The notes under the pieces: model-generated | Database searches by the model: none | The model's input: only the letters and a program-made list of their open reading frames with translations | What the model was told of the DNA's origin: nothing | Translations under genes and position numbers: made by a program | Assembly (NCBI GenBank): GCA_963749975.1 | Contig: CAVVOZ010000016.1 | Span: forward strand, 8,496-72,495 | Reading direction: 5' to 3' | DNA length: 64,000 bases | From: an uncultured Candidatus Rokubacteria bacterium | GTDB lineage: Bacteria; Methylomirabilota; Methylomirabilia; Rokubacteriales; DASRDR01 | Part shown: positions 10,389-47,417 of the stretch, one piece after another | How positions within the stretch are numbered: position 1 is the stretch's first letter | Layout: the number at the start of each line of letters is the position of its first letter

Positions 10389-10390
10389 CG

Positions 10391-25552: not shown

Positions 25553-25568
25553 CCCCGGGGGCTGACCG

Positions 25569-30237: not shown

Positions 30238-30758
30238 GGGGCGGGAGCGATCCCCCGGAGTACCGGGGCGCGCGGCTCCGGGTCCGGCGGGAGCGCCACG
30301 TCTTGCCGGACGGGCGCCGCGTCTCGGTCGACGCGGTGCGCGCGCCCGCCGTGGCCTACATCCTGCCGCTCCTCGACGACGGCCGGGTCGTGCTGATCCG
30401 GCAGTACCGGCCGATCGTGGGCGCCGAGATCTGGGAGCTACCGGCCGGCACGATCGAGGCAGGGGAGTCGCCCGAGGCGTGCGCCCGGCGCGAGCTCATC
30501 GAGGAGGCGGGCTACGAGGCCGGGCGCCTCGATCCCCTGGGGGAGGCGCTCGCCGATCCCGGGCTCACCGACGAGCGCATCTTCCTCTTCGTCGCGCGGG
30601 AGCTCCGGCCGGCCGCGCGCGGGCTCGACGCCGACGAGCACATCGAGGTCGTGCCGGCGCCGCTCGCCGAGGCCTACCGGATGGCCGACGCGGGGGAGAT
30701 TCTCGACGCGGGGACCCTCGTCGCCCTCTTCCGATTCCGGGGCCGCGCCGACCGCTGA
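30210..30758 (+). CDS. NUDIX hydrolase (ADP-ribose pyrophosphatase-like)
   Basis: Nudix box GTIEAGESPEACARRELIEEAGY. The start is uncertain; the nearest in-frame ATG is 30210, which overlaps the upstream gene. Confidence 0.75.
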   Translation: MDPRPARGVGGGSDPPEYRGARLRVRRERHVLPDGRRVSVDAVRAPAVAYILPLLDDGRVVLIRQYRPIVGAEIWELPAGTIEAGESPEACARRELIEEAGYEAGRLDPLGEALADPGLTDERIFLFVARELRPAARGLDADEHIEVVPAPLAEAYRMADAGEILDAGTLVALFRFRGRADR

Positions 30759-30783
30759 GGTCCCCGGGCCGGCGGGCGCGGCG

Positions 30784-31848: not shown

Positions 31849-32014
31849 GGCCGAGCCTTCCGGGTCTTCGCGTCGTCGCGGGCTCGCTCGTTCGTCACCC
31901 AGGAACGCTAGCCCGGCGCGTCCGGTCCGTCAATCGGGCACGTGACCGGCACGCGGTAGATACGAGCAGGCAGCATGAGAGGCGGCGCGGCGGCGCGCCG
32001 CGGGTGCCGGTCGC

Positions 32015-32044
32015 TTGACAGCGGCGAACGGCCGTCGCTACAGT
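32015..32044 (+). promoter_or_regulatory. Sigma70-like promoter for the plus-strand LLM gene
   Basis: TTGACA (32015-32020), 18 nt, TACAGT (32039-32044). It is followed by a roughly 110-nt leader containing two copies of the palindrome GTCGCGAC and the palindrome CGGCTAGCCG. Confidence 0.45.
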
Positions 32045-32157
32045 CACGCCCGTCGCGACCTGCGGTCACGATCGGCACGCGGGAGACGGCTCTCGCCGGC
32101 CAGCCGGCGGCTAGCCGGCCGCCAGCCGGGCCGTCGCGACGTGGAGGAAGCCGGACG

Positions 32158-33186
32158 ATGCGCTTTTCACAACTCGTCCTCTGCGACCGGCGAGAGGGCC
32201 AGTCGAGCCAGGAGCGCTACGAGCAGCAGCTGGCCGAGGTGCGCCTCATGGACCAGCTGGGCTACTGGGCGTGCTGGTTCGCCGAGCATCACTTCGCCGG
32301 GTACGCGCTGGTGCCGGATTGCCTGCTCATGGCCGCGGCGGCCGCCCGCGAGACGCGGCGGATCCGCCTCGGCACCGGCGTGGTCGTCCTTCCGTTCCAG
32401 CACCACCCGATCCGGGTCGTGGAGCAGGCGGCGATGGTGGACTGCCTGAGCGGCGGGCGGCTCGAGCTCGGACTCGGGCGTGGCTACCAGCCGCACGAGT
32501 TCATGGGCTTCGGGGTGAAGCTCGAGGAGAGCCAGGACCGCTTCGACCAGTCCCTCAGCGTGGTCCGCCAGGCCCTCGCCCAACTTCACGACCTGGACTA
32601 CGCGACCCCGCTCTTCCGGGGGCGTCACGCCAGCATCTGGCCCAAGCCGGTCCAGAATCCGATCCCCTGCTGGGGGGCCTCGATCAGCGAGGCGTCCTTC
32701 GCGCGGTACGGGGCGCTCGGATGGCCCATCCTGACCTTCCCCGCGAACCAGAAGCCGGAGGCGCTCCGGACCCAGATCGACACCTACCGGCGCGTGTACC
32801 GGGAGCATGGCCACGACCCAGCCCGGATGCGCGTCGCCTTGACGATGTTCTGCTACCTCGCCGAGAGCGCGGCCGAGGCCAACGAGACGTTCGAGCGCGG
32901 CATGGAGAAGTACTTCGGCTTCCTCGACAGCATCACGGCCGACGCCGAGAAGCACCAGCACACCCTCTACGATCGGATCCCGACGCTGGCGCGGCTCTCG
33001 GGATCGCCGGAGGACGCGGTCAAGCGGCTCCGCGAGCTGATCGACTACTTCGATGTGACGGACTTCCTGAACGTCACCCAGTTCGCCGGGTACCTGAGCC
33101 ACGAGCAGATCATGCGGTCGATGCGGCTCTTCGCCGATCGCGTGATGCCGCACTTCCAGCGGGGCGCCCGCAACGGCGGGCCGTGA
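32158..33186 (+). CDS. LLM-class (luciferase-like) flavin-dependent oxidoreductase
   Basis: ...GYWACWFAEHHFAGY...IRLGTGVVVLPFQHHPIRVVEQ...LSGGRLELGLGRGY.... GGAGGAAG ribosome-binding site. Confidence 0.85.
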   Translation: MRFSQLVLCDRREGQSSQERYEQQLAEVRLMDQLGYWACWFAEHHFAGYALVPDCLLMAAAAARETRRIRLGTGVVVLPFQHHPIRVVEQAAMVDCLSGGRLELGLGRGYQPHEFMGFGVKLEESQDRFDQSLSVVRQALAQLHDLDYATPLFRGRHASIWPKPVQNPIPCWGASISEASFARYGALGWPILTFPANQKPEALRTQIDTYRRVYREHGHDPARMRVALTMFCYLAESAAEANETFERGMEKYFGFLDSITADAEKHQHTLYDRIPTLARLSGSPEDAVKRLRELIDYFDVTDFLNVTQFAGYLSHEQIMRSMRLFADRVMPHFQRGARNGGP

Positions 33187-33572
33187 TGCGCCCGCGTGAG
33201 CGGGTCTCGTCCGGCGGGCGCTGGGAGCCGCTCGTCGGGTACTCGCGGGCCGTCCGGGTCGGCGACATGGCCTGGGTGTCGGGGTGCACGGCGGCGGGGC
33301 CGGGCGGCGCGGTGGTGGGCCGGGGGGACGCGTACGCGCAGACCGTCCAGGCGATCCGCACGATGTCGGAGGCGCTCGGGCAGCTCGGGCTCGGCCTCGG
33401 TCACGTCGTCAAGACGGGGGTGTATCTCGCCGACATGGCCCAGTGGGAGGCCGTGGCTCGCGCGCACCGCGAGGCGTTCGGCGATGTCCGGCCGGCCTGC
33501 ACCTGGGTCGAGTGCGGAACGATGATCCATCCGGACATGCTGGTCGAGATCGACGCGATCGCCGTCGAGTGA
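33186..33572 (+). CDS. RidA/YjgF-family protein
   Basis: ...VGYSRAVRVGDMAWVSGCTA...AQTVQAIRTMSEALG...VVKTGVYLAD...VEIDAIAVE. The ATG overlaps the upstream stop (TGATG). Confidence 0.8.
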   Translation: MRPRERVSSGGRWEPLVGYSRAVRVGDMAWVSGCTAAGPGGAVVGRGDAYAQTVQAIRTMSEALGQLGLGLGHVVKTGVYLADMAQWEAVARAHREAFGDVRPACTWVECGTMIHPDMLVEIDAIAVE

Positions 33573-33577
33573 GCGGG

Positions 33578-34095
33578 ATGAGCGGACTCGCTGCCCGCGT
33601 CGGCGTTCGGCGCCGGCCCGCTGGCCACGACGGTCCAGCGCGCGCTCGCCGTCGGCCCGCGCGCAGCTCGGCGTCAGGCGGACCGCGCTCTTCTGGCTCG
33701 ACGACGCCCTGGGCCGCTCGTCCTGCGTCGCCACGGCGGGTGCCGGCGGCACGGACGGGTGGGTCGGCCAGACGCTCGCCGCCGGCGTCGGGATGGCGGG
33801 GCGCGCGGTGAGGGAGGGCCGGCCGGTGTGGACGCCGGACCTGCTCGCCGACCCGCGCGTTCCGATCGCGCCGTGGCTCCGGGAGCGACTCGAGGAGGAG
33901 GGGCTCCGGACGGTGGCGGCGGCGCCGGTCCGGATGGACGGCGCGATCCGGGGCGCGCTGGGCTTCCTGGACGGACCGGGCCGGACCTTCGACGACGACG
34001 CTCTTCGACAGATCGGGCGCCTCGCCGACGAGGTCGCGGCGAGCCTGGTGCGCGGAGCCAGCGCCCAGCCTGAGGATGACCGGGCCATTCGATGA
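33578..34095 (+). CDS. GAF-domain protein, apparently fragmented (frame breaks near 33600 and 33655-33662; no clean start)
   Basis: ORF 33793..34095 carries the C-terminal half of a GAF fold (GMAGRAVREGRPVWTPDLLADPRV...RTVAAAPV...GALGF). Its in-frame upstream extension reads AQLGVRRTALFWLDDALGRSSCVATAG. Still further upstream, LATTVQRALAVGPR lies in another frame. Confidence 0.4.
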
Positions 34096-34208
34096 CACTC
34101 GCGAACGTGAGACCGCTCTGCCCTCTGACGGTGGTGGTCGCGCGATCCCTCACTTCGCTCGCCAGAGATCTCCTGCGTGCGGCGCCCTGACCCGAGATCC
34201 TCGGCGCC

Positions 34209-34962
34209 TCACTCCGGCGCGAGACGGCCGATCCGGGGCAGCACCTCGACCTCCGCCGCGTGGAGGTCCTGGGGGAAGTCGATCTCGATCCAGGGGAGCC
34301 CGGCCGTCGGGCACATCGCGAACGGGTGCCCACCCAGGAGGCCGTCGAGGGCGACCTCGTAGTCGCCGTCCACACGGCCCTCCCGGACCATGGCGTCGAG
34401 TCCGGCCGCGAGGGCGGATCCCGCGGGCACGGCTCACCTTGACGAAGCCGACCCACTCGGCCCTGGCGTCGTAGGGGACGGCGGGCGGCCCGCTCACACC
34501 CCGGCGGATCGCCACGACCCGCTCGCCGGCCTGGTAGAGGTTGATCTCCTCGCCGGTGTCCATGAACTCGGGCTCGCCCAGGAACACGTTCGGCTCGGTG
34601 GCGCGGACGACGCGCTCGAGCAGGGGCGGCGCGAAGAGCACGTCGCCGTCGACCAGGACCACGTCGTCCCGCTCGAACTCCGCGCGGCCCGCCCAGAGCG
34701 ACAGCCGCGGGCCCTTCTCGAAATCGCGGTTGACGACGTAGCGGAGCGGCATGCCCCGATGGGAGGTGCCGAGGGCGGCCCGGATCATCGCCTGGCGGTA
34801 GCCGACGACGAGGACGGTCTCGTGTACCCCGGCGGCCAGGAGGCCGTCGAGAAGGCGCGCAAGGAGGCTCCGGCCTCCGAGCTCGATCAGGCCCTTCGGC
34901 CGCTCCTCGGTGAGGGGAGCCAGGCGCTTGCCGAGGCCCGCGGCCAGGACGAGGCCCGTCAC
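34209..34962 (-). CDS. Sugar-phosphate / phosphocholine nucleotidyltransferase-like protein (LicC/MobA-like fold); apparent +1 frame break near 34428-34434
   Basis: MTGLVLAAGLGKRLAPLTEERPKGLIELGGRSLL...; after EWVGFVKVS it continues in the frame of ORF 34209..34430 (...GLPWIEIDFPQDLHAAE). The GTG start overlaps the mlaC stop as GTGA. Confidence 0.65.
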
Positions 34963-35594
34963 GGCTTCTTGCCCTTCGCCGCGGCGTCCTCGTCGAACTG
35001 GAGCTCCTCCTGCTTCGTCTTGAGCCGCTGGACGAGATCCGGATAGCCAGACTGCTGGATGATGCGGTTGAACTGGGAGCGGTAGTTGGAGACCAAGCCC
35101 ACGTTCTCGATCTTCACATCGTAGATGCGCCAGCGCTCGTCCACCTTGTGCATCTGATAGTCGATCGGGATCTGGTTCCCGTTCTTGGTCAGGAGCTTCG
35201 TCCGCACCGTGGCCTGGTCCCCGTCGAGCGTCTCCTCACCGTAGAGGATCTTCTCGCCGCTGTAGGCCTCGATCTTGCCCACGTACGACCGCTCGAGAAG
35301 ATCGGCGAAGAGCTTCGAGAATTCCTCTCGCTCCTGCGGCGACCGTCCCTGCCAGTGCCGGGCGAGCGCGCGCTTGCCCGTCTCGGTCCAGTCGAAGACC
35401 TCATTGGCGATGGCGCGGATCTTCTGACGACGCTCCTCGGCCTTGCCGGGCTGCTTGAGGGCCGGGTCCTGGAGGATGGCCAGCACCCGGTCGATGCCCC
35501 CCTTGAGCTGATCGGTCGGCGGTCCAGCCTGGGCGGCGCGCCCGGCCAGCAGGGCCAGCGCCACGATGAACAGCGAGACGGCGAGCCGTCGCAT
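34959..35594 (-). CDS. mlaC: MlaC/Ttg2D-family periplasmic lipid-binding protein
   Basis: Signal peptide MRRLAVSLFIVALALLAGRAAQA, then ...IANEVFDWTETGKRALARHW...FSKLFADLLERSYVGKIEAY...WRIYDVKIENVGLVSNYRSQF. GGAGG ribosome-binding site. Confidence 0.8.
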   Translation of the reverse strand: MRRLAVSLFIVALALLAGRAAQAGPPTDQLKGGIDRVLAILQDPALKQPGKAEERRQKIRAIANEVFDWTETGKRALARHWQGRSPQEREEFSKLFADLLERSYVGKIEAYSGEKILYGEETLDGDQATVRTKLLTKNGNQIPIDYQMHKVDERWRIYDVKIENVGLVSNYRSQFNRIIQQSGYPDLVQRLKTKQEELQFDEDAAAKGKKP

Positions 35595-35620
35595 GCGTTC
35601 AATCCTCCGGATGGAGTCTC

Positions 35621-37141
35621 TCACGGCTTTGACGGAGCCAGCCGCTGCACGTCGGGGACGTCCTGGCCCGCGGCGTGGGCGAGCTGCTCGAGGCCGAAGA
35701 CGTAGGCGTAGAGCGCCTGGAGGTAGTCGGCTCGGGTCCGGGCATACTGCACGAAGGCGTCCGCCAGGTCGTCCGGATCCCCGACCCCCAGGTCCACGTT
35801 CGAGGAGCTCGCGACGAGCCACTGCTTGGCGTTGTCGTGCGCCTCCGACAGGACCCTGGTGTTCCGCTCGGCCTCGACCACCGTGGTGTACGCGTCGCGA
35901 ACCTGGAGCGGGATTCCGTCGAGGGCGTGGTCCCGCAGGGCTTCGAGCTTCTGGACCTCCGCCTCGGCTTCCTTGATCTTGCCGGCGCGGATCCCGAAGT
36001 CGAGGTTGTACTTGAAGCCGATGACCGGCCCCACCGCGGTGTGGTAGAGGGGGTCGATGACGTAGGGGTTCTCGAGCCGGTCTCGGTTGGTCGCGTACGC
36101 GAGATCGCCCAGGAGGCCGACGAAGAAGAGCGGATAGCCCTGCTTGCGCTCGACCTCGACCAGTCTCCGGCGCGCCTCGATGCCCTCCCGGAGCTGGGAG
36201 AACTCCGGCCGCCCGGCGAGCGCGTTCTGAACGTACAGGTCCAGCGCCGGGATGGGCTTCATGTCCGCCGGCAGGACCTCATCCGTCGGGTCGACGGCCA
36301 CCCCCTTGGGCTGGCCCGTCCACGTTCCCAGGGCCTGGGTGGCCAGGTCTATCGTCTTGTCCGTGAGGTTGATGTACCGCTCGAGCTCACCGCGCTTGGA
36401 GCGAAACCGGTAGAGGTCGATGTCGGTCGCGAATCCGCCCTCCACCAGCCGCTCGGTCCGCGCGATCGCCTGGTCGACCTGATCGCGCACCTCGACCAGG
36501 AACGCGCGGATCGCCTTGGCCGTCACGGCCCCCCAGTACGCCTGCTTCACGCGGAGCGCGACCTCGGTGCTCTTGACGTCGACGCCAGCCTGCGCGGCCC
36601 GGACGCCGTGGTCGGCGGCCAGGCGCGCGTTCTCGACAAGGCCCCACGTGAAGATGGGCTGGATGATGCTGACCGTGCCCCGCACGAACGCGCCCGTGAT
36701 GTCCGGGGAGTACTGGTCGTCAGGGGAGGCGACCTGGTTCCCGCGGGCCCGGGGTGACGGGCCGAGCACGGTCTGGACCTCGATCTGCGGGCGGCCGATC
36801 CCGACGGCCTGGAGCTGCTTGCCGCGGAAGCCCTCGAGCTCTGCGATCGCCTGGCGGGTCTCGGGGCTCCGCCCGAGCGCCGCCCGGAGGCTCGCCTCCA
36901 GCGTCAGCCGGACGGCCGGCGGTCCCAGGACGGACGCCGACTGGGCGGGAGTAGCCGGAGCCGAAGGCGTCGACGTTCCCTGCGTGGCCGGTGGGGGCGT
37001 GGTGCCCTGAGCCCCGACCGATCCCGGGGTGAGCGTTGCGCCCAGCATCAAGACCAGCGCCACGGGCAGCACCCGGACGGGCACGCGCGTGCCGGGCCGC
37101 GCTGCCGGGGCGCCGGAAGTGAGGGGACGGTGCCAGCGCAT
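35621..37141 (-). CDS. TolC-family outer-membrane protein
   Basis: Signal peptide plus a Thr/Pro-rich linker, then two OEP-type repeats (LTLEASLRAALGRSPE...; ...ALAGRPEFSQLREGIEARR...YLQALYAYVFGLEQL). Confidence 0.75.
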   Translation of the reverse strand: MRWHRPLTSGAPAARPGTRVPVRVLPVALVLMLGATLTPGSVGAQGTTPPPATQGTSTPSAPATPAQSASVLGPPAVRLTLEASLRAALGRSPETRQAIAELEGFRGKQLQAVGIGRPQIEVQTVLGPSPRARGNQVASPDDQYSPDITGAFVRGTVSIIQPIFTWGLVENARLAADHGVRAAQAGVDVKSTEVALRVKQAYWGAVTAKAIRAFLVEVRDQVDQAIARTERLVEGGFATDIDLYRFRSKRGELERYINLTDKTIDLATQALGTWTGQPKGVAVDPTDEVLPADMKPIPALDLYVQNALAGRPEFSQLREGIEARRRLVEVERKQGYPLFFVGLLGDLAYATNRDRLENPYVIDPLYHTAVGPVIGFKYNLDFGIRAGKIKEAEAEVQKLEALRDHALDGIPLQVRDAYTTVVEAERNTRVLSEAHDNAKQWLVASSSNVDLGVGDPDDLADAFVQYARTRADYLQALYAYVFGLEQLAHAAGQDVPDVQRLAPSKP

Positions 37142-37145
37142 GAGT

Positions 37146-37583
37146 CTACACCTTGCCGAATACGTACTTCGAGATCAACTCCTCGATGTCGACCGGCGCT
37201 TCGACCTCGGTGAGGCGCCCACCGGCCGGCACGAGCTTGTCCGAGCCTCCCGGGCTGATCTGGATGAACTTCTCGCCGATGAGACCCTTCGTCTTGATCG
37301 AGACGATTGCGTCGGTCTGGAGCTTCACGGCGTCGTCGATCCGGAGGGCGACCCGTGCCTGGTACTCCTTGAGCCCGATCGACTGCACCCGGCCGACCGA
37401 GACGCCGGCGATCTCCACGGCCGCTCCGGACTTGAGCCCGCCCACGGTCGGAAAGTCCGCGTAGACGACGTAGCCCTGACGGCCCAGGACGTCGACCTTG
37501 CCCAGATTCATGGACAGGTACGCCAGCGCGAGGATTCCCGCGACCATGAACAGCCCGACTCCGAGCTCCACTCGTCGCCCCAT
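37146..37583 (-). CDS. mlaD: MlaD (MCE-domain) protein
   Basis: N-terminal TM helix, then the MCE domain ...YADFPTVGGLKSGAAVEIAGVSVGRVQSI...VSIKTKGLIGEKFIQISPG. Confidence 0.85.
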   Translation of the reverse strand: MGRRVELGVGLFMVAGILALAYLSMNLGKVDVLGRQGYVVYADFPTVGGLKSGAAVEIAGVSVGRVQSIGLKEYQARVALRIDDAVKLQTDAIVSIKTKGLIGEKFIQISPGGSDKLVPAGGRLTEVEAPVDIEELISKYVFGKV

Positions 37584-37636
37584 GACGGCCTCCGTGCCTT
37601 CTTTGCGCGCTTCCGCTTTGACCAGCTAGATGGCAG

Positions 37637-38398
37637 CTAGACGGCCTGCTCCTCGACCTCGCCGTGGATGAATCGACGCACCGCCGGGTCGCTGGAGCCC
37701 TGGATCTCCTCCGGCGTGCCCACCATGTGGATCCGCCCTTCGTGGAGCACCGCGACACGGTGGGCGATCTGGAAGATCTCCGGGATCTCGTGACTGACCA
37801 TGACGGCCGTGAAGCCGAACTTTCGATGAAGCCCGACGACCAGATGGTGGATCGAGTTGACGAGGATGGGGTCGAGCCCGGTCGTCGGCTCGTCGAGGAA
37901 CACCACCTGGGGCTCGGTGACCAGCGCCCGAGCGATGGCAACGCGCTTCCGCATGCCTCCGGAGATCTCGGCCGGGTACTTGTGGCCCATCTCCCCGAGG
38001 CCGACCTGGGCCAGGGCTTCCTGGGCCCGTGGCAGGAGATCGGACTGGGGAAGCCGGCGGCGCTCCCGGATCGGGAACAGGATGTTCTCGAGCACGGTGA
38101 GCGAGTCGAAGAGGGCGCCTCCCTGGAACACGACCCCGAAGCGCTCCCGGATCCGGTCGAGGGCCTGCCCGCGGAGGCTCGCCACGTCCTGGCCGTCGAT
38201 GATCACGCGCCCGGCATCCGGCCGGACCAGCCCGAGGAGGTGCCGGAGGAGCACGGACTTGCCGCCCCCGGACCGCCCGATGACGACCATCAGCTCGGCC
38301 GGCGCGATCTCGAGGTCGATCCCGCGGAGAACCTCCTGGCGTCCGAAGCGCTTGCGGAGCCCCTCGACCCGGATCGCGGGGGCCGGCGCTCCCGTCAC
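37637..38398 (-). CDS. mlaF: MlaF-type ABC transporter ATP-binding protein
   Basis: Walker A GRSGGGKS, signature ISGGMRKRVAIARAL, Walker B VVFLDEPTTGLD. The GTG start overlaps the mlaE stop as GTGA. Confidence 0.9.
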   Translation of the reverse strand: MTGAPAPAIRVEGLRKRFGRQEVLRGIDLEIAPAELMVVIGRSGGGKSVLLRHLLGLVRPDAGRVIIDGQDVASLRGQALDRIRERFGVVFQGGALFDSLTVLENILFPIRERRRLPQSDLLPRAQEALAQVGLGEMGHKYPAEISGGMRKRVAIARALVTEPQVVFLDEPTTGLDPILVNSIHHLVVGLHRKFGFTAVMVSHEIPEIFQIAHRVAVLHEGRIHMVGTPEEIQGSSDPAVRRFIHGEVEEQAV

Positions 38399-39180
38399 GG
38401 CATCACCGAGCCCAGGAGGTAGTCGAGCACGAGGATGAGGACCGACGCGAGCACGACCGCCTCGGTCGTGGCGCGCCCCACGCCCTCGGCGCCGTGGCCG
38501 ACGTTGAAGCCCTTGTAGCAGGCGACCCACGTGATGACGAGCCCGAACACGAGCGCCTTCCAGAAGCCGACCCAGATGTCCTCGGTGTCCAGGAAGGCCT
38601 GGATCTGCCCGAAGTAGGTTCCGGAGGACATCCCGAAGAGCTTCACCGTCACGAGATAGCCGCCGTAGATGCCCACGACGTCGAATACCCAGGCGAGGAG
38701 GGGAAGGGCGACGAGCCCCGCCACCAGCGTCGGCACGACCAGGTACCGCATCGGGTTGAGCGCCATCACGGTCAGCGCGTCGATCTGCTCGGTGATGCGC
38801 ATGACGCCGATCTCGGCGGCGAGGGCCGATCCCGCGCGTCCGGTCACCATCAGCGCGGCGAGCACCGGGCCGAGCTCACGCACGAGCGCGATCGCCACCA
38901 GCGGGCCCACGAAGGCCTCCGAGCCGACGCGCTGCAGCATCAGCATGCCCTGGAGCCCGAGGACCATTCCGGTGAACGCCCCGGTCAGAAGGATCACGGA
39001 CATCGATCGAAAGCCCACGAACCAGACTCGCTGGAGCGCCTGGCGGGCCTTGAACGGCGGGACGACGGCCCAGCGCAGCGCCTCGCCCAGGAAGACGCCG
39101 AAGCGCCCGAGGGCCGAGAGGGTATCGAGGCCGAACCGCCCGAGACCCTGGATGGAGTCGAGGACGAGGGAACCGGGCAT
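38395..39180 (-). CDS. mlaE: MlaE-type ABC transporter permease
   Basis: ...FVGFRSMSVILLTGAFTGMVLGLQ...ELGPVLAALMVTGRAGSALAAEIGVMRITEQIDAL... is the typical MlaE/Ttg2B core. It starts 41 nt after the shc stop. Confidence 0.9.
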   Translation of the reverse strand: MPGSLVLDSIQGLGRFGLDTLSALGRFGVFLGEALRWAVVPPFKARQALQRVWFVGFRSMSVILLTGAFTGMVLGLQGMLMLQRVGSEAFVGPLVAIALVRELGPVLAALMVTGRAGSALAAEIGVMRITEQIDALTVMALNPMRYLVVPTLVAGLVALPLLAWVFDVVGIYGGYLVTVKLFGMSSGTYFGQIQAFLDTEDIWVGFWKALVFGLVITWVACYKGFNVGHGAEGVGRATTEAVVLASVLILVLDYLLGSVMP

Positions 39181-39221
39181 TCGGGGGTGAACGGGTCTGT
39201 GGCTTGGGCTCCCGCCGGGCT

Positions 39222-41111
39222 CTACCGCGTGAGCCGGCGCCACGCTCCGAGCGCCCACAGGGGGAAGTAGTGGGCGTAGAGGTGGTACTGCAGGTAGAAG
39301 ACCCGAGGAAAGCCGGTTCCGTTCCAGAGCTGGTCGTCCCAGCCGCCATCGGCTCGCTGGCCCCGCAGGAGGAACTCGATGCCACGCTCGACCACCGGGG
39401 TGGCCGCCTGGCCCGCGGCCATCAGGCCGAGCAGGGCCCACGCCGTCTGGCTCGGTCCCGATGCCCCGCGTCCCTTGAGGTGGGCGTCGGCGTAGGAATC
39501 GCAGGTCTCGCCCCAGCCGCCATCCGGATTCTGGCGAGCCTCGAGCCATCGGATCGCACGCCCGACCATGGGATCGTCGGCGCGGAGCCCGATCGCCTCG
39601 AGTCCCCGGAGGACCGACCACGTCCCGTAGAGGTAGTTCACGCCCCAGCGCCCGTGCCACGCGCCCTCGGGCGTCTGGGTTCGGCGGAGGAACGCGAGGC
39701 CCCGCTGGATCGCCGGGTCGTCACGCGGGACCCCCAGCCGCCCGAAGCACTCGATGCAGCGCGCGGTGAGGTCTTCCGTGGCCGGGTCGAGGAGCGCCCC
39801 GTGATCGGCGAACGGGATGTTGTTGAAGAGCAGCCGCGTCTGATCCGTGTCGAACGACGCCCAGCCCCCGTCCTTGCCCTGCATGCCCCGGAGCCACCGC
39901 ACGGCGCGGTCGATGGCAAGGCGCCGCCGGCCGTCGTCCGGATGGTCGATCTGGGCCAGCCCCATGGCGACCACCGCGGTGTCGTCGAGATCCGGGTAGA
40001 AGGGGTTGTCGAACTGGAAGGCCCAGCCGCCGGGCGCGAGCCCCGGACGCTTGACCTGCCAGTCTCCCGTCTCGAGCACCTGACGGTCCAGGAGCCAGTC
40101 CGCGGCGCGAATGACGGCCGGGTGCGAGCTCGGGAGCCCCGACGCCAGAAGGGCGTTGACCGCGAGCGCGGTGTCCCAGACGGGGGACACGCACGGCTGG
40201 ACGTGGAAACGACGCGGCTCCTCGACGCCGAGCGCCTCGATCTCCTTGATCTGCCCCGCGATCAGTCCGTGATCATCCGGGTAGCCCAGGAGCCGCATCG
40301 CCAGGATCCCGTTCACCATGGCGGGATAGATGCCACCCAGGCCGCCCGGGACGGTCATCCGAGGAACCAGCCAGTCGTGGGCGGCACGGATCGCCCGGGC
40401 GCGCCAGGGGCGAGGTCCGAAGGCCTCCCACGTCTTGAGGAAGCCGTCGACGCCGATGAAGATGTTCTTCCACGACACGAGCCCGCGGCGCGCATACGCC
40501 GGGTCGTCGAGGTGGAGGTGATGCGCCCACAGCTCGTCGATGCCCCAGCCGCGCGGAACGGGGTGCACCGGCCGGCGGTCCATGACGATCAGGAGGGGGA
40601 TGAGGACCGTCCTCGACCAGTAGGAGATCTCCCAGATGTTGAAGTAGGACCACCGGGGCAGCAGCATGATCTCGACCGGCATCGCCGGCACGCCGCCCCA
40701 GGGGTACTGGCCGAACAGGGCCAGGGTGATCTTGGTGAACACGTTGGCCTGGGTCGGCCCGCCCCGCTCCAGGATCCACTCCCGGGCGCGAGCCATGGCG
40801 GGATCGGCCGGGGAGACCTGGGCCATCTTCATGGCGAAGTACGCCTTGATGGTCGCCGAGAGGTCGCCGGCCCCGGCCTGGTAGAGGTTCCACGAGCCGT
40901 CCGTGCCCTGCCGGTCCCTGAGGTACGCGACCGCCTTCTGCTCGAGGTCCCGATCCACGGTCCCGAGGAGATGGCGGAGGAGGACGTACTCGGACGTGAT
41001 GGTGGAGTCGGCCTCCAGCTCCCCGACCCAGTCCCCGGCCGGGGACTGGAGCCGCAGGAGATGGTCCTGCGAGCGCCGGAGCGCCGCGTCGACTCGGCTC
41101 GTATCTACCAT
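39222..41111 (-). CDS. shc: Squalene-hopene cyclase
   Basis: QW repeats (e.g. RDRQGTDGSWN, LLDRQVLETGDW, LRGMQGKDGGW, ARQNPDGGWG, GQRADGGW) and the catalytic DxDDTA motif (YPDLDDTAVV). Confidence 0.95.
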   Translation of the reverse strand: MVDTSRVDAALRRSQDHLLRLQSPAGDWVGELEADSTITSEYVLLRHLLGTVDRDLEQKAVAYLRDRQGTDGSWNLYQAGAGDLSATIKAYFAMKMAQVSPADPAMARAREWILERGGPTQANVFTKITLALFGQYPWGGVPAMPVEIMLLPRWSYFNIWEISYWSRTVLIPLLIVMDRRPVHPVPRGWGIDELWAHHLHLDDPAYARRGLVSWKNIFIGVDGFLKTWEAFGPRPWRARAIRAAHDWLVPRMTVPGGLGGIYPAMVNGILAMRLLGYPDDHGLIAGQIKEIEALGVEEPRRFHVQPCVSPVWDTALAVNALLASGLPSSHPAVIRAADWLLDRQVLETGDWQVKRPGLAPGGWAFQFDNPFYPDLDDTAVVAMGLAQIDHPDDGRRRLAIDRAVRWLRGMQGKDGGWASFDTDQTRLLFNNIPFADHGALLDPATEDLTARCIECFGRLGVPRDDPAIQRGLAFLRRTQTPEGAWHGRWGVNYLYGTWSVLRGLEAIGLRADDPMVGRAIRWLEARQNPDGGWGETCDSYADAHLKGRGASGPSQTAWALLGLMAAGQAATPVVERGIEFLLRGQRADGGWDDQLWNGTGFPRVFYLQYHLYAHYFPLWALGAWRRLTR

Positions 41112-41156
41112 TGATCGCTGGTGTCGCTGGTCGGGTTGATTGGGGCTTAGTGTAGC

Positions 41157-42014
41157 ATGGGTGGCTCGGGACCGATGGGCGGCGGCGACCAGCTCTTCAT
41201 CTTCGCAGGGCTCGGGGCAGCGCTCGGGCGCGCGTGGGGCAGCGTCCTCCTGCGCCCGTACGTGTTCGGGTTCCTCGCCGTGTACCTCACCGCTGCGGCG
41301 GCGGTGTGGGGCTGGCGGCGCGCGGCGGCGTTCACCGTCTGGGCCGGGGGCCTGGCGTTCGCCGCCGAGTGGAGCTCGACCCGCACCGGGATCCCGTTCG
41401 GGCTCTACCACTACACCGGGGCGACCGTGGGGCGGGAGCTCTACCTCTCGAACGTCCCCTTCTTCGACTCCGTGTCCTTCACGTTTCTCGCGTACGCGAG
41501 TCTCGGGCTGGCCGGGCAGCTCCTCGGCGCCGGGGAAGAGGCGGCCCAGGCCCGGACCGGCGCGCGCCTTCGCCTGGCTGGCCTGGCGGGACTCCTCATG
41601 ATGTGGCTCGACATCGTGATCGATCCGCTGGCGGTGCGGGGCGACCGGTGGTTCCTCGGCCGGATCTTCTACTACCCGGAGCCCGGCTGGTACTTCGGGG
41701 TGCCGGTCGCGAACTTCGTCGGCTGGGTGCTCGTCGGCGCGGCGATCGCGTGGGGCTGGACGATCATCGGCCCTCGCGTCGGCGGCGCGCGGCCCGCCTG
41801 GGGGATGCGCTGGCCGGAGCACGGACGTCAGGCCGTGGCGCTCTACTATCTCGTGCTGGCCTTCAACCTGGCGATCACGGCGGCGGTGGCCGAGCCCGCG
41901 CTTCTCGGCGTCGGGGTTCTCCTCCACGTGCCGCTGGCAGCCGTTGTAGTATGCTCTCTACGATCGCGGGACCAGGCGGGCCGGATACCGGCGCGCGCTG
42001 GCGAGCCCGCATGA
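41157..42014 (+). CDS. Integral membrane protein of the 'carotenoid biosynthesis protein' (DUF422) family
   Basis: Multi-helix membrane protein with ...AEWSSTRTGIPFGLYHYT...SNVPFFDSVSFTFLAY...DPLAVRGDRWFLG...YFGVPVANFVGW.... It is divergent from shc. Confidence 0.5.
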   Translation: MGGSGPMGGGDQLFIFAGLGAALGRAWGSVLLRPYVFGFLAVYLTAAAAVWGWRRAAAFTVWAGGLAFAAEWSSTRTGIPFGLYHYTGATVGRELYLSNVPFFDSVSFTFLAYASLGLAGQLLGAGEEAAQARTGARLRLAGLAGLLMMWLDIVIDPLAVRGDRWFLGRIFYYPEPGWYFGVPVANFVGWVLVGAAIAWGWTIIGPRVGGARPAWGMRWPEHGRQAVALYYLVLAFNLAITAAVAEPALLGVGVLLHVPLAAVVVCSLRSRDQAGRIPARAGEPA

Positions 42015-42033
42015 GACCCGGCGAGCGGAGCGT

Positions 42034-43056
42034 ATGAGCGTACCCATCTCTCAGATGTGGACCGTCGCGAGCTACGTGCTCACGCAGCGGTTTCGTGGGC
42101 GCAAGCAGTACCCGCTCGTCCTCATGCTCGAGCCGCTGTTCCGCTGCAACCTCGCCTGTGCGGGCTGCGGCAAGATCCAGTATCCGGGCCAGATCCTCCG
42201 GAAGAACCTCAGCGTCGAGCAGTGTCTCAAGGCCGTCGACGAGTGCGGCGCCCCCATCGTGTCCATCCCGGGCGGCGAGCCTCTCATGTACCCGGAGATC
42301 GGGCGGCTCGTGACGGAGCTGGTCGCGCGGAAGAAGTACATCTATCTCTGCACGAACGCCATCCTGCTCAAGGAGAAGCTCGACGCCGGCGTCTTCACGC
42401 CGTCGAAGTACCTCTCCTTCAGCATCCACATGGATGGGCTCCGGGAGGAGCACGACGAGGCCGTCTGCAAGGACGGCGTCTTCGACCAGGCCGTCGAGGG
42501 GATCCGGGAGGCGCTCCGCCGGGGATATCGCGTGACGACGAACACCACCCTGTTCGACGGCGCCAATCCCGAGCGGGTGCGGCAGTTCTTCGACGCGATG
42601 ATGGACCTCGGCGTGGAGGGGATGATGGTGTCCCCCGGCTACAGCTACTCGAAGGCGCCCGATCAGGAGCACTTCCTGCGCAAGCAGCGGGCCAACGACC
42701 TCTTCCGACGCATCCTGTCGAGCCCGAAGCGGCGGTGGCGGTTCAACCAGTCTCCGCTGTTCCTCCAGTTCCTCATGGGGAAGCGGGACTACGAGTGCAC
42801 GCCCTGGGGGAATCCGACCTTCAACGTCTTCGGCTGGCAGCGCCCGTGCTACCTCCTCCAGGAGGGCTACGCGCCGAGCTTCGAGGATCTGCTCCGGGGC
42901 ACGCGGTGGGAGCGCTACGGGAAGCGGAGCGGCAACGAGAAGTGCCGCGACTGCATGGTCCACTGCGGGTTCGAGGCGACGGCCGTCCAGGAGACCTTCT
43001 CCAGCTGGCGCGGATTCCGGGACACGGTGGTGGCCACCGTGACCGGACGTGCGTGA
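42034..43056 (+). CDS. hpnH: Adenosyl-hopene transferase HpnH (radical SAM)
   Basis: LEPLFRCNLACAGCGKIQYP (CxxxCxxC) ...GGEPLMYPEI...LCTNAILL...WGNPTFNVFGWQRPCYLL...CRDCMVHCGFE. Confidence 0.9.
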   Translation: MSVPISQMWTVASYVLTQRFRGRKQYPLVLMLEPLFRCNLACAGCGKIQYPGQILRKNLSVEQCLKAVDECGAPIVSIPGGEPLMYPEIGRLVTELVARKKYIYLCTNAILLKEKLDAGVFTPSKYLSFSIHMDGLREEHDEAVCKDGVFDQAVEGIREALRRGYRVTTNTTLFDGANPERVRQFFDAMMDLGVEGMMVSPGYSYSKAPDQEHFLRKQRANDLFRRILSSPKRRWRFNQSPLFLQFLMGKRDYECTPWGNPTFNVFGWQRPCYLLQEGYAPSFEDLLRGTRWERYGKRSGNEKCRDCMVHCGFEATAVQETFSSWRGFRDTVVATVTGRA

Positions 43057-43404
43057 TGGAGGTCGAGAAGACCCTCGAGGGGTGGGCGCCCGAGCCGGAT
43101 GCCGAGATGTCTCTCGCCCACATCGTCGAGCTCGCCTTCGACTACCGGGGCAACACCACGGTCGTGAAGCGGGACGGTACGGAGCATCCACGGCTACGTG
43201 TTCAACCGGGACGCGGACGCTCCGGTGCCGTACCTCGAGATGTTCGATGCCGAGGGCGGGGGACCCTACCGCGTTCCGTACGCGGAGGTGCGCACGATCC
43301 ACTTCACCGGAAAGGACACCGCGGCCGGGAAGTCCTACGCCGCATGGCTTGCCCGGAAGCAGGCGGAGAAGGCCGGACGGGCGGCGGGCCCACCGCCACC
43401 GTGA
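43056..43404 (+). CDS. Small conserved hypothetical protein in the hpn cluster; apparent +1 frame break near 43183-43190
   Basis: MEVEKTLEGWAPEPDAEMSLAHIVELAFDYRGNTTVVKRDGTE is in the first frame. It continues as IHGYVFNRDADAPVPYLEMFDAEGGGPYRVPYAEVRTIHFTGKD in the frame of ORF 43198..43404. The ATG overlaps the hpnH stop. Confidence 0.45.
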
Positions 43405-44128
43405 CGCAGGGGTCGAGCTCACGCGCGAGGGTCGCTTCCTCGTCGTCGCCGGCCTCGCCATGGAGGCCCGCGGACTGCTCCGGCGCTTGCCGCCGGCCAC
43501 CCGGCGGGCGCTGACCGTCCGGATCGTGGGCCCTCGCGCGACCCTCCTCGACCGTCTCGAGATCCCCCCGGCCTCGCGGGAGCCCGTGGGGCTGCTCGTG
43601 ACCGGGCTCGCGGGTGGCTGCGGGCCAGATCTCCGGCCGGGTGACGTCATCGTCGGCGACCCCGTGGCGACCCCAGGTGCGGAGTCCTGCAGTGACGCCG
43701 GGGATCCCGGCCTCCGACACCGGGCCACACGCGCCCTCGATGCCGCCCGGCTTCGCTACCGGGTCGGACGGCTCCTCACGGTGGACGACGTCGTGACGAG
43801 CCCGGCGGCGAAGGCGGAGTGGTGGGCGACGCAGCGCGTGCTGGCCGTCGACATGGAGAGCGCGCACGTCCTCGCCTGGGCCCGGCGCGCCGGGCTTCCC
43901 GCGCTGGCGGTCCGGGCCGTCGCGGACGGCCCCGAGGACGACGTACCGCGAGAGCTGCTCGGAGTGGTGGGGGCGGATGGCCGCACGCGCGCCCGCGCCG
44001 TGGCGCGCCTCCTCGGGCGTCCGGCTCTGGTCGGCGCGGCCTGGCGCCTCGGGCGTCGGTCGCACCAGGCGCTCGAGAGCCTTGCCCGGTTCATCCGGGC
44101 GTTCGTGGACACACCGGGCGAGCCCTGA
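43401..44128 (+). CDS. hpnG: Hopanoid-associated phosphorylase HpnG (PNP/UDP family); start unresolved
   Basis: FLVVAGLAMEARGL...LLVTGLAGGCGPDLRPGDVIV...AVDMESAHVLAWARRAGLPALAVRAVADG. The only start-like codon near the conserved N-terminus is GTG 43401 (a GTGA overlap), but it is one base out of frame with the rest of the gene. Confidence 0.7.
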
Positions 44129-45312
44129 GGCCTCTCGCCGCGCTCCTGGTCGGCTGCCTGCTCGCGCTGCCGCGCCCGGCGGCGGCGGACACCTCGTATT
44201 CCTTCTTTCCCTTGCCCGCGTTCGACACCGATCCGAACGAGGGGGAGACCTACGGCGTCCTGCCGGTCTGGATGTTCAAGGACGAGGAGGGGCGTATCCG
44301 GACCATCGTGGCCCCATCCATAACCTGGAACGAGATCCGCGGGGTGACGGGGACGTTCCGGTACTTCCTCTACGCGAGCGCCTTCGAGCGGCTGGAGCTC
44401 ATCGCCTCCTACTCGGAGAAGATCGACCGCGAGCTCAAGGTCCAGTACAAGAATCTCGACGTGTTCGGCGGCCGATTCCACACCGACTTCCAGTTTCTGC
44501 ACGAGCGCGTGTCCTCGATCCGCTTCTTCGGTATCGGCCCCTCATCGCAGAAGGAGGACGAGTCCAACATGACGCTGGAGACGACGGGGGGCTACGCCAT
44601 CTTTGGCGTCAACGTGACTCCGACCATGCGGCTGTCCCTCGGCGAGACCCTCCAGCGGTTCGAGGTCGCCCGAGGGGGTGTGCCGGGCCTACCGTTCACC
44701 GGCGACCTCTTCCCCGACCTCCCCGGGATCCAGGGCGCCACGATCCACGCCCAGCGGGTTGCCTTCATACACGACAACCGCGACTCGCTGACCACGCCGA
44801 CGCAGGGACTCTACGTCAGCGTGTTTGCCGAGGCCTCCACCGAGCTCCTCGGGAGCGACGCCGACTACATCAAGGCCGGCGCCGAAGGCAGGTACCTGAA
44901 GCCCTTCCTCGACCGCCGGGTCGTGCTGGTCCTGCGGGGACTCTTCGAGGGCATCTCGGGTGAGTCGAACACCCCCTTCCAGGTGCTGCCCACGCTGGGC
45001 GGGGTCGACACGCTGCGCGGCTTTGGCGAGAATCGCTTCTACGGGGACGCCCGGTTGCTCTTCAATGCCGAGGTGCGCGGCAGTGTGTTCCGCGGCCGCA
45101 TCTTCGGCGTCGACGCGGAGTTGCAGGTCGCGCCCTTCGTCGACGTCGGCAAGGTGTTCAACTCGCTCGAGCAGTTCCTCGACACCCCCTTCGAGATCAC
45201 TCCCGGTGTCGGGTTTCGCGGGCTGGCTCCGCCGAGCGTCGTCGGCCACATCGAGTTCGCGTTCAGCCGGGAGGGGCCGGCGATCTACGTCGGCCTCGAC
45301 TACCCCTTCTGA
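44125..45312 (+). CDS. Omp85/BamA-TamA-family outer-membrane beta-barrel protein (surface antigen domain only); CTG start candidate
   Basis: Signal peptide (L/M)RPLAALLVGCLLALPRPAAA. C-terminal barrel with ...LPTLGGVDTLRGFGENRFYGDA...VDVGKVF...PGVGFRG...EFAFSREGPAIYVGLDYPF. CTG 44125 overlaps the hpnG stop. Confidence 0.7.
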   Translation: MRPLAALLVGCLLALPRPAAADTSYSFFPLPAFDTDPNEGETYGVLPVWMFKDEEGRIRTIVAPSITWNEIRGVTGTFRYFLYASAFERLELIASYSEKIDRELKVQYKNLDVFGGRFHTDFQFLHERVSSIRFFGIGPSSQKEDESNMTLETTGGYAIFGVNVTPTMRLSLGETLQRFEVARGGVPGLPFTGDLFPDLPGIQGATIHAQRVAFIHDNRDSLTTPTQGLYVSVFAEASTELLGSDADYIKAGAEGRYLKPFLDRRVVLVLRGLFEGISGESNTPFQVLPTLGGVDTLRGFGENRFYGDARLLFNAEVRGSVFRGRIFGVDAELQVAPFVDVGKVFNSLEQFLDTPFEITPGVGFRGLAPPSVVGHIEFAFSREGPAIYVGLDYPF

Positions 45313-45515: not shown

Positions 45516-46523
45516 ATGAGAGCGCTCGTCACCGGCGGGACCGGCTTCGTCGGCAGCCACGTCGTGCGGGCCCTGGTCGAGGACGGCGTCACCGTGCGCG
45601 TCCTGGCCCGTCCGGGGAGCGACCGGCGCGCCCTGGCCGACCTTCCGGTCGAGATCGTGACGGGCGACCTCGCCGAGCCGCGCTCGCTGGAGGCGCCGCT
45701 CGCGGGCGTGGAGGTGCTCTACCACGTCGCGGCCGACTACCGCCTCTGGGCGCGCGACCCCGCCGTGCTCTACCGCGTCAACGTCGGCGGCACGCGGGCG
45801 CTCCTCCTCGCCGCGGCCGCGGCCGGCGTCGCTCGCGTGGTCTACACGTCGAGCGTCGGCACCCTCGGCTTGCCGCCGGAGGGCAGGTCCGGCACGGAGG
45901 AGACGCCGGTCCGGCTCGAGGACATGGTGGGGGACTACAAGCGCTCGAAGTTCCTCGCGGAGCGCGAGGCGGAGGCGGCCGCCGCTCGCGGATTGCCCGT
46001 CGTCATCGTCAACCCCTCGGCGCCCGTCGGTCCGTGGGACTGGAAGCCCACGCCGACGGGGCGGATGCTCGTGGACTACCTGAAGGGTCGGATGCTCGCC
46101 TACCTGGAAACCGGGCTGAACGTCGTGCACGTTCGCGACGTCGCGCGAGGGCACCTCCTGGCCGCCGCGCGCGGCCGAGTCGGCGAGCGGTACATCCTGG
46201 GGCATGCGGAGGGGAACCTGGGGCTCCGCGCCATCTTCGAGCGGCTCGCCCCCTACACCGGGGTGCGGGCGCCCCGGGTGCGCCTGCCGCACCGGGCCGC
46301 GCTGGCGCTCGGTGCCGGCGCCGAGCTCGTGGCGCGCCTGACGGGGACCGAGCCGGTCGTCGCGCGGACTGCCGTGCGGATGGCGGCCAAGCGGATGTTC
46401 TTCGACCCGTCCAGGGCGATCCGGGAGCTCGGGCTGCCCCAGACGCCCGTGGACCAGGCGCTCCGCGATGCGGTGGACTGGTTCTGGGCGAACGGCTACG
46501 CTCCGCGCCGGCGCCGTGTATAA
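45516..46523 (+). CDS. hpnA: Hopanoid-associated NAD-dependent sugar epimerase/reductase HpnA (extended SDR)
   Basis: MRALVTGGTGFVGSHVVRAL...YHVAADYRLW...VYTSSVGT...YKRSKFLAE (YxxxK). Confidence 0.8.
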   Translation: MRALVTGGTGFVGSHVVRALVEDGVTVRVLARPGSDRRALADLPVEIVTGDLAEPRSLEAPLAGVEVLYHVAADYRLWARDPAVLYRVNVGGTRALLLAAAAAGVARVVYTSSVGTLGLPPEGRSGTEETPVRLEDMVGDYKRSKFLAEREAEAAAARGLPVVIVNPSAPVGPWDWKPTPTGRMLVDYLKGRMLAYLETGLNVVHVRDVARGHLLAAARGRVGERYILGHAEGNLGLRAIFERLAPYTGVRAPRVRLPHRAALALGAGAELVARLTGTEPVVARTAVRMAAKRMFFDPSRAIRELGLPQTPVDQALRDAVDWFWANGYAPRRRRV

Positions 46524-46553
46524 TCGTGGACATCCTGCCGGCACGCGCAGCCG

Positions 46554-47417
46554 GTGTCACATCACGTCATGAACGCGGCTGACCTCTCCGCCATCCTCAC
46601 CCGTCGCAGCGGGTCGAATTTCTACTACTCGTTCCTGTTCCTGCCGAAGCGGAAGCGGCACGCCATCTACGCGCTGTACGCCTTCTGTCGAACGGTGGAT
46701 GACGCCGTGGATCAGGGGGCGGCGACACCGAGCGAGCAGCGCCGCATCCTGGCGGACTGGCGGCTCGAGCTGGGCCGCGCGTACGACGGCCGCCCGACGC
46801 AGCCGATCGCTCAGCATCTCGCCGAGGTGGTCCGGGCCTTTCCCGTCCAGCGCCAGCACCTCGAGGCGATCCTCGACGGCGTCGAGATGGACATCGACAA
46901 GCGACGCTACGCCTCGTTCGAGGAGCTGTACGAGTACTGCTACCGGGTGGCGGGAGCGGTCGGTCTGGCCTGCATCGAGGTCTTCGGCTACACGGACCCC
47001 CGGGCCCGGGACTACGCGGTCAACCTGGGCATCGCGCTCCAGCTGACGAACATCATGCGCGACCTCCGCACGGACGCCGAGCGGGGCCGCATCTATCTGC
47101 CGCTCGACGAGATCCGCCGGTTCGGGTACTCGGAGGACGAGCTCATCCACGGGCGGCACACTCCGGCGTTCGTCGGGCTGATGCGCTTCCAGGCCGATCG
47201 CGCGCACGCGTACTACCGTGCCGCCAAGGCGGCCCTGCCGCCGGCCGACCGGCGCCGCCTGATCGCGGCGCAGATCATGGGCGGCATCTACCGCGCGCTC
47301 CTGCGAGAGATCGAGGCGCGCCAGTTCCGCGTCTTCGACGGTCGCATCCGGGTTTCCACTCCGAAGAAGATCGCCCTCGCGCTCGGCGCTTACCTGCACG
47401 GCCAGCTCGCCCCATGA
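46554..47417 (+). CDS. hpnD: Squalene/phytoene synthase family enzyme (HpnD-like presqualene diphosphate synthase)
   Basis: SNFYYSFLFLPKRKRHAIYALYAFCRTVDDAVD (first Asp-rich motif) ...YCYRVAGAVG...QLTNIMRDLRTDAERGRIYLP. Alternative start at ATG 46569. Confidence 0.75.
   Translation: MSHHVMNAADLSAILTRRSGSNFYYSFLFLPKRKRHAIYALYAFCRTVDDAVDQGAATPSEQRRILADWRLELGRAYDGRPTQPIAQHLAEVVRAFPVQRQHLEAILDGVEMDIDKRRYASFEELYEYCYRVAGAVGLACIEVFGYTDPRARDYAVNLGIALQLTNIMRDLRTDAERGRIYLPLDEIRRFGYSEDELIHGRHTPAFVGLMRFQADRAHAYYRAAKAALPPADRRRLIAAQIMGGIYRALLREIEARQFRVFDGRIRVSTPKKIALALGAYLHGQLAP

Follow-up and report, generated by a model that had tools for sequence, protein, structure and literature searches.

HpnN, a protein of the RND type, is the established exporter of hopanoids, and to our knowledge delivery of hopanoids to the outer membrane is known for this one RND pump only. 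Equally, we know of no member of the TolC family that acts as an outer-membrane acceptor for a lipid chaperone. For Proteobacteria, it has been proposed that the MlaC-like HpnM, the MlaA-like HpnS and the lipocalin-like HpnT act with HpnN in shuttling hopanoids (Lawrence, Pan, Ollikainen, Belin, bioRxiv 10.1101/2025.07.29.667474). The accessible part of the text of that preprint does not mention TolC, an ABC transporter, a permease or MCE, its supplementary tables of shc neighbours may list such domains, and the accessible part of its version 1 supplement (one PDF, 14,101 characters) holds no MlaE, MlaD, Mce or efflux terms. In Negativicutes, described in the accessible part of another report as a lineage without MlaA and MlaC, the genes tolC and tamB come after mlaEFD (Grasekamp et al., 2023; PMC10665443). 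Literature searches, with the supplementary tables of Lawrence et al. outside their coverage, returned no paper describing shc beside mlaEFD or an mlaEFD-tolC-mlaC operon. Both arrangements occur together in an uncultured soil Rokubacterium (Methylomirabilota), where, in the stretch of 64,000 nucleotides analysed here (the window; contig CAVVOZ010000016.1), the squalene-hopene cyclase gene shc heads a minus-strand string of seven genes (34209-41111) with mlaE, mlaF, mlaD, a TolC-family gene, mlaC and a nucleotidyltransferase gene. With a probability of roughly 0.55, the string encodes a general Mla-type lipid shuttle that has a TolC-like protein as its partner in the outer membrane, is expressed along with hopanoid synthesis and does not serve hopanoids exclusively.

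The window has a G+C content of about 72% and belongs to a genome of 5.28 Mb (G000) that is 91% complete. Reading frames were chosen by third-position G+C and then by family searches, which gave the following genes in string order:

39222..41111, minus strand: shc, squalene-hopene cyclase, 629 aa (TIGR01507 801.8 bits, cut-off 431.1; both SQHop_cyclase domains present)
38395..39180, minus strand: mlaE, ABC permease, 261 aa, beginning 41 nt past the shc stop (PF02405 269.1 bits; TIGR00056 257.6 bits, cut-off 212.2)
37637..38398, minus strand: mlaF-like ABC ATPase, 253 aa, with a GTG start that overlaps the mlaE stop as GTGA (ABC_tran 113.4 bits)
37146..37583, minus strand: mlaD, short, with a single MCE domain, 145 aa (TIGR04430 OM_asym_MlaD 139.1 bits, cut-off 135; PF02470 77 bits)
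35621..37141, minus strand: TolC-family outer-membrane factor, 506 aa, starting 4 nt past mlaD (PF02321, two repeats, 105.9 bits)
34959..35594, minus strand: mlaC, periplasmic lipid-binding shuttle, 211 aa, starting 26 nt past tolC (PF05494 161 bits)
34209..34962, minus strand: MobA/LicC-like nucleotidyltransferase, overlapping mlaC by GTGA and carrying a +1 frameshift near 34427 (NTP_transf_3 56 bits)

The junctions measure 41, -4, 53, 4, 26 and -4 nt in this order, both overlaps (mlaE/mlaF and mlaC/nucleotidyltransferase) have the sequence gccGTGAcgg, and the cyclase start at 41111 agrees with the start of its domain. The seven-gene string with its gaps and two GTGA overlaps, as laid out in an earlier sequence-only reading of this DNA, was thus borne out by family searches and junction sequences. 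Of the gene anatomy given there, the complete MlaFED-MlaC set, with a putative MlaF, the TolC-family protein and the nucleotidyltransferase were recovered; the last of these is, however, not a single open frame. Narrower models set some bounds on the assignments, as MlaE scores 265.4 bits with NF033619, under its cut-off of 315, and the mlaF-like ATPase reaches 175.6 bits with the MlaF equivalog PRK11831 (cut-off 441), with several other ABC ATPase models scoring equally.

The two proteins at the periplasmic and outer-membrane end of the string can be recognized by fold. The TolC-family protein, which has a signal peptide as well as a Thr/Pro-rich linker, scores 64.4 bits with TIGR01844 (cut-off 225). 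Its AlphaFold2 model (predicted local distance difference test, pLDDT, 85.8) contains two 67-residue helices and four long strands, and the top Foldseek match of this model is TolC of E. coli with a template modelling (TM) score of 0.79 (range 0.75-0.79), so that the protein is predicted to show the full TolC fold. MlaC equally carries a signal peptide, with GGAGG ahead of its ATG, and the solved folds closest to its AlphaFold2 model (pLDDT 85.8) are phospholipid-bound MlaC/Ttg2D (TM 0.66-0.73, query-normalised). It is the sole MlaC in the 91% complete genome, which has three MlaE/MlaD loci in total.

Gene identities, folds, gene order and conservation are observed; from them we infer co-transcription, assembly of the complexes, TolC as the partner of MlaC, the cargo and the direction of transport. 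MlaF, MlaE and MlaD would form the inner-membrane ABC complex and MlaC the soluble periplasmic lipid shuttle, which a TolC-family trimer in the outer membrane may dock, replacing the MlaA lipoprotein. The operon is probably transcribed together with shc, by which envelope lipid traffic and hopanoid synthesis would be co-regulated. The default cargo is probably glycerophospholipid. Hopanoids are possibly carried too, which would matter in the family of the window because the RND exporter HpnN appears to have been lost there.

The linkage of shc with the mla genes proved widely conserved. Among 121 genomes of the phylum, for which the coordinates of shc and of the mlaE ortholog were compared, the two genes adjoin in 74 of the 82 Rokubacteriales genomes (8/9 in the family of the window, f1, and 66/73 in its sister family, f2, whose tally includes the three unpublished genomes G038, G080 and G119 and stands at 63/70 without them), and the linkage is therefore not confined to this contig. 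Five of the genomes that deviate belong to a single genus and have a different cyclase elsewhere; the other three have a missing match. All seven fetched loci of f1 read shc-mlaE-mlaF-mlaD-tolC-mlaC-nucleotidyltransferase, and in other Rokubacteriales families 10 of the 11 loci fetched show the same order minus tolC, the remaining one having no shc. A search with an MlaC alignment gave 80 loci, 61 with MlaC in an mlaD-containing operon and 19 with an orphan MlaC. Fifty-two of the 61 operon loci carry shc directly upstream of mlaE, six a CruF-like gene next to mlaE and no shc, and three are cut by a contig end; counted by content, 20 hold tolC, 30 an HpnN-like gene in the flank and three both. 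An attempt to follow the linkage into other phyla by means of metagenome-assembled genomes labelled Binatia, Verrucomicrobiia and Limnocylindria did not reach beyond the phylum, as one cyclase match agreed fully with that of a sampled Rokubacteriales genome in its contig number, coordinates and score, and the other two genomes carried Rokubacteria-type cyclases.

Outside the order, the operon and the cyclase stand in different relations. In f8, a family of another order, the arrangement is mlaEFD-tolC-mlaC-hpnN-mlaC-PagL-like-shc (L121, L122), and a distance of 7.5-8.3 kb separates mlaE from shc, on the same contig, in 8 of 11 genomes. In f7, the orthologous mlaE-mlaF-mlaD-tolC-mlaC does not adjoin shc; in the complete genome G047 (L124) the two are 1.9 Mb apart. 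In f6, the 100% complete genome G041 has no cyclase candidate and an intact five-gene operon. A second f6 genome, G081, was set aside as a further case without cyclase, since it holds a distant cyclase homologue (150 bits) besides the retained operon, so that only G041 counts as clean. In addition, f7 and f11 possess another type of MCE system, whose MlaD is long, 1.5-1.9 kb downstream of shc (3/15 genomes of f7, at least 3/6 of f11), which looks like a second, separate linkage. In L117-L120, this separate system consists of mlaE, mlaF and the long MlaD (333-393 aa), followed by a GH57/DUF3536 gene. At another locus of G047 (L123, G047:C1:26000-42000), the genes after shc encode an HpnG-like phosphorylase and, next, an HlyD adaptor with a MacB-type ABC transporter.

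Such a close association of shc with mlaE, separated by just 41 nt in the window, can be taken to favour a dedicated hopanoid exporter, as the sequence-only reading had suggested, in which MlaFED would extract hopanoids from the inner membrane, MlaC would ferry them and the TolC-like protein would receive them, with the whole replacing HpnN. MCE systems that transport cholesterol exist in mycobacteria (Mce4), which points in the same direction. So do the long-MlaD system near shc in two families (L117-L120), one of which, f11, equally lacks HpnN (0/6), the position of HpnN between two mlaC genes inside the f8 operon, and the proposal of the MlaC-like HpnM as a hopanoid shuttle (Lawrence et al., bioRxiv 10.1101/2025.07.29.667474). 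Nevertheless, we consider this exporter a possible but rather unlikely explanation. The orthologous operon is kept in the cyclase-less complete G041 and is unlinked from shc in G047, and an operon that outlives the loss of the cyclase is not a hopanoid-only system. Furthermore, the string provides the only MlaC system of the genome, and its MlaD exceeds the cut-off of the MlaD equivalog. The top NCBIfam match of MlaC is indeed HpnM (TIGR03481), at 97.2 bits under the cut-off of 160.1; however, seven other Methylomirabilota MlaC proteins, including orphans and the shc-unlinked copy of G047, score 76.5-100.8 bits with the same model. The match is thus not specific, and likeness to HpnM was discarded as evidence for a hopanoid cargo, as the MlaC paralogs of the phylum score alike whether linked to shc or not.

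The distribution of HpnN bears on the same question. The sequence-only reading had noted that hpnN is absent from the hopanoid island, and this absence holds for the 91% complete genome, in which neither a TIGR03480 match at E <= 0.001 nor a tblastn match with the HpnN-like protein of a relative was found. Similarly, no PF04333 match for MlaA and no tblastn match with the MlaA of a relative was obtained in G000. Per family, with the genome of the window tallied apart (HpnN-like 0, MlaA not found, tolC present) and HpnN-like genes counted at E <= 1e-80 (full length, 430-607 bits, which is under the curated cut-off), the numbers are:

f1, family of the window: HpnN-like 0/8, MlaA 1/8, tolC ortholog 7/8
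f2, sister family: HpnN-like 70/73, MlaA 68/73, tolC ortholog 7/73
f6: HpnN-like 0/2, MlaA 0/2, tolC ortholog 2/2
f7: HpnN-like 15/15, MlaA 14/15, tolC ortholog 14/15
f8: HpnN-like 11/11, MlaA 0/11, tolC ortholog 10/11
f10: HpnN-like 3/3 (one of the three genomes unpublished), MlaA 0/3, tolC ortholog 3/3
f11: HpnN-like 0/6, MlaA 1/6, tolC ortholog 0/6

With no full-length match in 21 genomes of the family of the window, this family has, to judge from sequence, lost HpnN; MlaA is mostly missing there as well (present in 4 of 20 genomes). These losses speak for an export route that takes the place of HpnN. On the other hand, the linkage of shc with mla occurs with hpnN in f2, where HpnN-like genes mostly lie in the same cluster as shc-mla, and in f8, and without hpnN in f1, so that the anticorrelation of linkage and hpnN predicted by such a replacement fails. 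The f6 genomes have no HpnN-like gene (0/2), yet keep the Mla-TolC operon. An anticorrelation between the tolC insert and hpnN was equally ruled out, with both present in L059, L115, L116 and family f8. A more pointed version, in which MlaFED, MlaC and the TolC-family protein would provide an ATP-driven route to the outer membrane for hopanoids made by a co-transcribed cyclase, and perhaps for phospholipids, in this HpnN- and MlaA-less family of Rokubacteria, with the TolC trimer as acceptor for the lipid chaperone, we judge unlikely. One genome of the genus of the window carries a separate module, with a split HpnN-like gene followed by MlaC and then MlaA (L013, G004:C5:964000-980000, about 6564-11017). 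A second, orphan MlaC occurs in most genomes of the family of the window (L030 3920-10117; counterparts in L028, L029 and L031), with no such copy in G000; in the annotated locus L030, it adjoins genes for PAP2, an LPG-synthase-like membrane protein, a diacylglycerol kinase-like protein and an endonuclease/phosphatase-family protein.

The TolC-family gene holds a constant place in the operon. A tolC ortholog is present in 44 of the 121 genomes, about 2 kb from the mlaE ortholog wherever coordinates were compared; the gene order mlaE-mlaF-mlaD-tolC-mlaC is identical in all five annotated loci (L121, L122, L124, L125, L126), and the position between mlaD and mlaC is exact in six families, with an identity of only 35-47% outside the family of the window. 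On these comparisons, mlaEFD-tolC-mlaC is a core operon of the class. The MlaA-poor families f1, f6, f8 and f10 all keep tolC, with f11 and the single-genome f9 as exceptions, and loss of tolC falls mostly in f2, where MlaA reaches 68/73. L023, from one relative, has a MazEF toxin-antitoxin pair together with an enolase-superfamily gene as an insertion that separates mlaD from mlaC (5855-6474).

Could the neighbourhood nevertheless be inherited without functional coupling, with the TolC-like gene supplying a standard outer-membrane factor to efflux pumps whose genes lie elsewhere? The Rokubacteriales loci share descent, and as they are all related in this way, the counts are not independent. 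In genus g16, the CruF-like gene adjoins mlaE with no shc between them (5/6 genomes; 6 loci), so that the shc-mlaE pair is separable, and in Negativicutes mlaEFD is followed by tolC and tamB with a functional link not shown in the accessible part of the report (Grasekamp et al., PMC10665443). However, the place of tolC is fixed over six families despite the low identity, and its junctions of 4 nt with mlaD and 26 nt with mlaC imply translation from one mRNA. The genome has three OEP genes, of which the copy in the string is the most divergent and the other two are more canonical; and no HlyD, MacB or RND domain was found in the seven open reading frames (ORFs), so that no periplasmic adaptor or efflux pump is encoded in the string with the outer-membrane factor. 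Three different arrangements join MCE systems to shc within the class. Moreover, complex prediction for MlaC and a single TolC-like protomer gave a score of 0.58 (runs 0.57-0.59) versus 0.00 for the best of three controls, with at least 91% contact agreement between runs and a partner pLDDT of at least 81, which the tool's verdict terms 'weak support'. In its calibration, 116 of the 157 solved complexes and 2 of the 215 mismatches attained the mark; just 18 of these 157, along with both mismatches that passed, had a score of 0.60 or less. A neighbourhood of mere common descent is, in our judgement, quite improbable.

Several observations also weigh against the general lipid shuttle with a TolC-like partner. 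We know of no way in which a TolC channel would accept or insert lipids. The predicted contact with MlaC involves a TolC monomer, not a trimer, and is weak by the calibration of the tool itself. Family f7 possesses both TolC and MlaA (14/15 each), as do 5/5 sister-family genomes that were checked and whose operon includes tolC; TolC is thus not simply a substitute for MlaA, and a strict either/or of the two proteins is ruled out. The comparison of TolC and MlaA between families comprises few independent evolutionary events. No STAS domain indicative of MlaB was found in any of the seven ORFs, the search having covered the string. Finally, the tight order-wide linkage with shc and the HpnN inside the f8 operon exceed what a purely general phospholipid system would need.

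The last gene of the string is of less certain integrity. The nucleotidyltransferase frame from 34962 enters an Arg/Pro-rich tail and stops at 34150. In 7/7 relatives of the family, the protein has 250 aa with a conserved C-terminus, which is present in the window in another frame (34424-34209). Compared to the nearest relative (G014), a single extra C near 34427 (34420-34430) splits the 250-aa protein over two frames, and 34209, taken as the boundary of the string in the sequence-only reading, is the stop codon of the shifted frame. The extra C could be an assembly error in a run of C or a real disruption. In most sister-family loci, the gene after the nucleotidyltransferase ortholog encodes either a CDP-alcohol phosphatidyltransferase or an HpnL-like protein, with inositol-3-phosphate synthase and hpnN next; examples of the layout from mlaC through the nucleotidyltransferase to the HpnN-like gene are L016 6670-9598, L023 10166-16846 and L017 7807-11748. 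NF041135, a model of an inositol-phosphate enzyme, is matched in its cytidylyltransferase half with 50-55 bits here and in family relatives and with 73.6 bits in a sister-family ortholog. As all matches lie far under the cut-off of 580 and the partner genes were not found in G000, the protein was not assigned as inositol-1-phosphate cytidylyltransferase (IPCT). No inositol-3-phosphate synthase was found in G000, and the CDP-alcohol transferase query gave one weak partial match (50 bits) on another contig. It is a fair guess that the hopanoid cluster of the sister-family relatives includes a pathway for an inositol-phosphate lipid head group. The suggestion that the nucleotidyltransferase activates a head group fits the relatives, in which the CDP-alcohol transferase and inositol-3-phosphate synthase adjoin, and sits less well with the window, where the partners are missing and the gene is frameshifted.

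Upstream of shc and divergent from it lies a hopanoid island on the plus strand:

41157..42014, plus strand: CruF-like membrane protein, divergent from shc (PF04240 94.2 bits)
42034..43056, plus strand: hpnH, adenosyl-hopene transferase (TIGR03470 532.3 bits, cut-off 225)
43819..45312, plus strand: Omp85-family outer-membrane protein (PF01103 64.6 bits; NF047779 139.6 bits, under the cut-off of 200)
45516..46523, plus strand: hpnA, hopanoid-associated sugar epimerase (TIGR03466 466.3 bits, cut-off 367.65)
46524..47417, plus strand (ORF bounds; likely ATG near 46569): hpnD, presqualene diphosphate synthase (TIGR03465 322.7 bits, cut-off 278.6)

The region also contains genes for a zinc alcohol dehydrogenase, ispH, an FAD oxidase and pyruvate kinase. 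Thus mlaC, on the same strand and in the same string as shc, has hpnH, hpnA and hpnD within 12 kb. In the loci examined throughout the class, the CruF-like gene, of the carotenoid hydratase family, adjoins hpnH and either shc or mlaE with few exceptions, and at a guess its product might hydrate a hopene double bond. The Omp85-family gene between hpnH and hpnA was matched only in loci with the close form of tolC (59-94% identical) and the layout of the family of the window; other Rokubacteriales loci have hpnA and hpnH without an Omp85-family match between them. Farther away in the window, the minus strand carries a lysine 2,3-aminomutase-like radical SAM gene and two D-Ala-D-Ala ligase-like genes (17054-20656), and the plus strand a 2-aminoethylphosphonate transaminase and a PhnA-like hydrolase (24425-26945).

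Beyond the nucleotidyltransferase, the ORF 33045-34088 on the minus strand was rejected as an eighth gene of the string, having no family match and an Arg/Pro/Ser-rich translation and being partly antisense to a luciferase-like gene. The interval between the luciferase-like gene and the nucleotidyltransferase (33190-34150, about 0.95 kb) contains no convincing gene and no Rfam match, yet is conserved in the family relatives; an Rfam scan of 30000-46000 gave no match. Scanning 32800-42200 for promoters and terminators gave a single terminator-like site, on the plus strand, and nothing resembling a promoter; shuffled sequences yielded more, and at 70% G+C the result is uninformative. A search of sequencing runs yielded small shares only (at most 0.14 in RNA runs), from which no conclusion was drawn.

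The locus bears on two aspects of envelope physiology. How Mla systems work without MlaA is a question outside Proteobacteria, and a lineage devoid of HpnN and MlaA offers a compact and conserved test case for this question as well as for hopanoid delivery. Should the TolC-like protein indeed be the partner of MlaC, it would represent a new type of outer-membrane end for the Mla pathway; should hopanoids be among the cargo, a second hopanoid route would exist. The latter claim is limited by the comparative data, as the operon persists after loss of the cyclase.

Compared with the Mla system of Proteobacteria (MlaFEDB, MlaC, MlaA-OmpC/F), the string shares the MlaE permease, the ABC ATPase, a short MlaD with a single MCE domain and an MlaC with the MlaC/Ttg2D fold. 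It differs in that the string holds no STAS gene, a search of the genome gave no MlaA, tolC stands between mlaD and mlaC, and the operon stands directly behind shc. The Negativicutes cluster, as far as the accessible part of the report describes it, resembles the locus in a tolC homologue directly after mlaEFD and in the lack of MlaA; there, however, a long MlaD is thought to bridge the envelope alone and MlaC is missing, whereas MlaD has 145 aa here and tolC is followed by mlaC (PMC10665443). The route via HpnN, HpnM and HpnS, as outlined in the accessible part of the preprint, equally places an MlaC-like protein beside hopanoid genes, with hopanoid shuttling hypothesised by analogy to Mla, and the hpnN (split)-mlaC-mlaA module of the relative G004 (L013) is akin to it. 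In contrast, that route combines an orphan HpnM with the RND pump HpnN and the MlaA-like HpnS, whereas the window encodes its own MlaFED and TolC, with HpnN and MlaA absent and an MlaC under the HpnM cut-off (97 versus 160 bits). The idea of an MlaC-type protein handling hopanoids is hence already published (Lawrence et al.), and the tolC gene embedded in the operon is the newer element.

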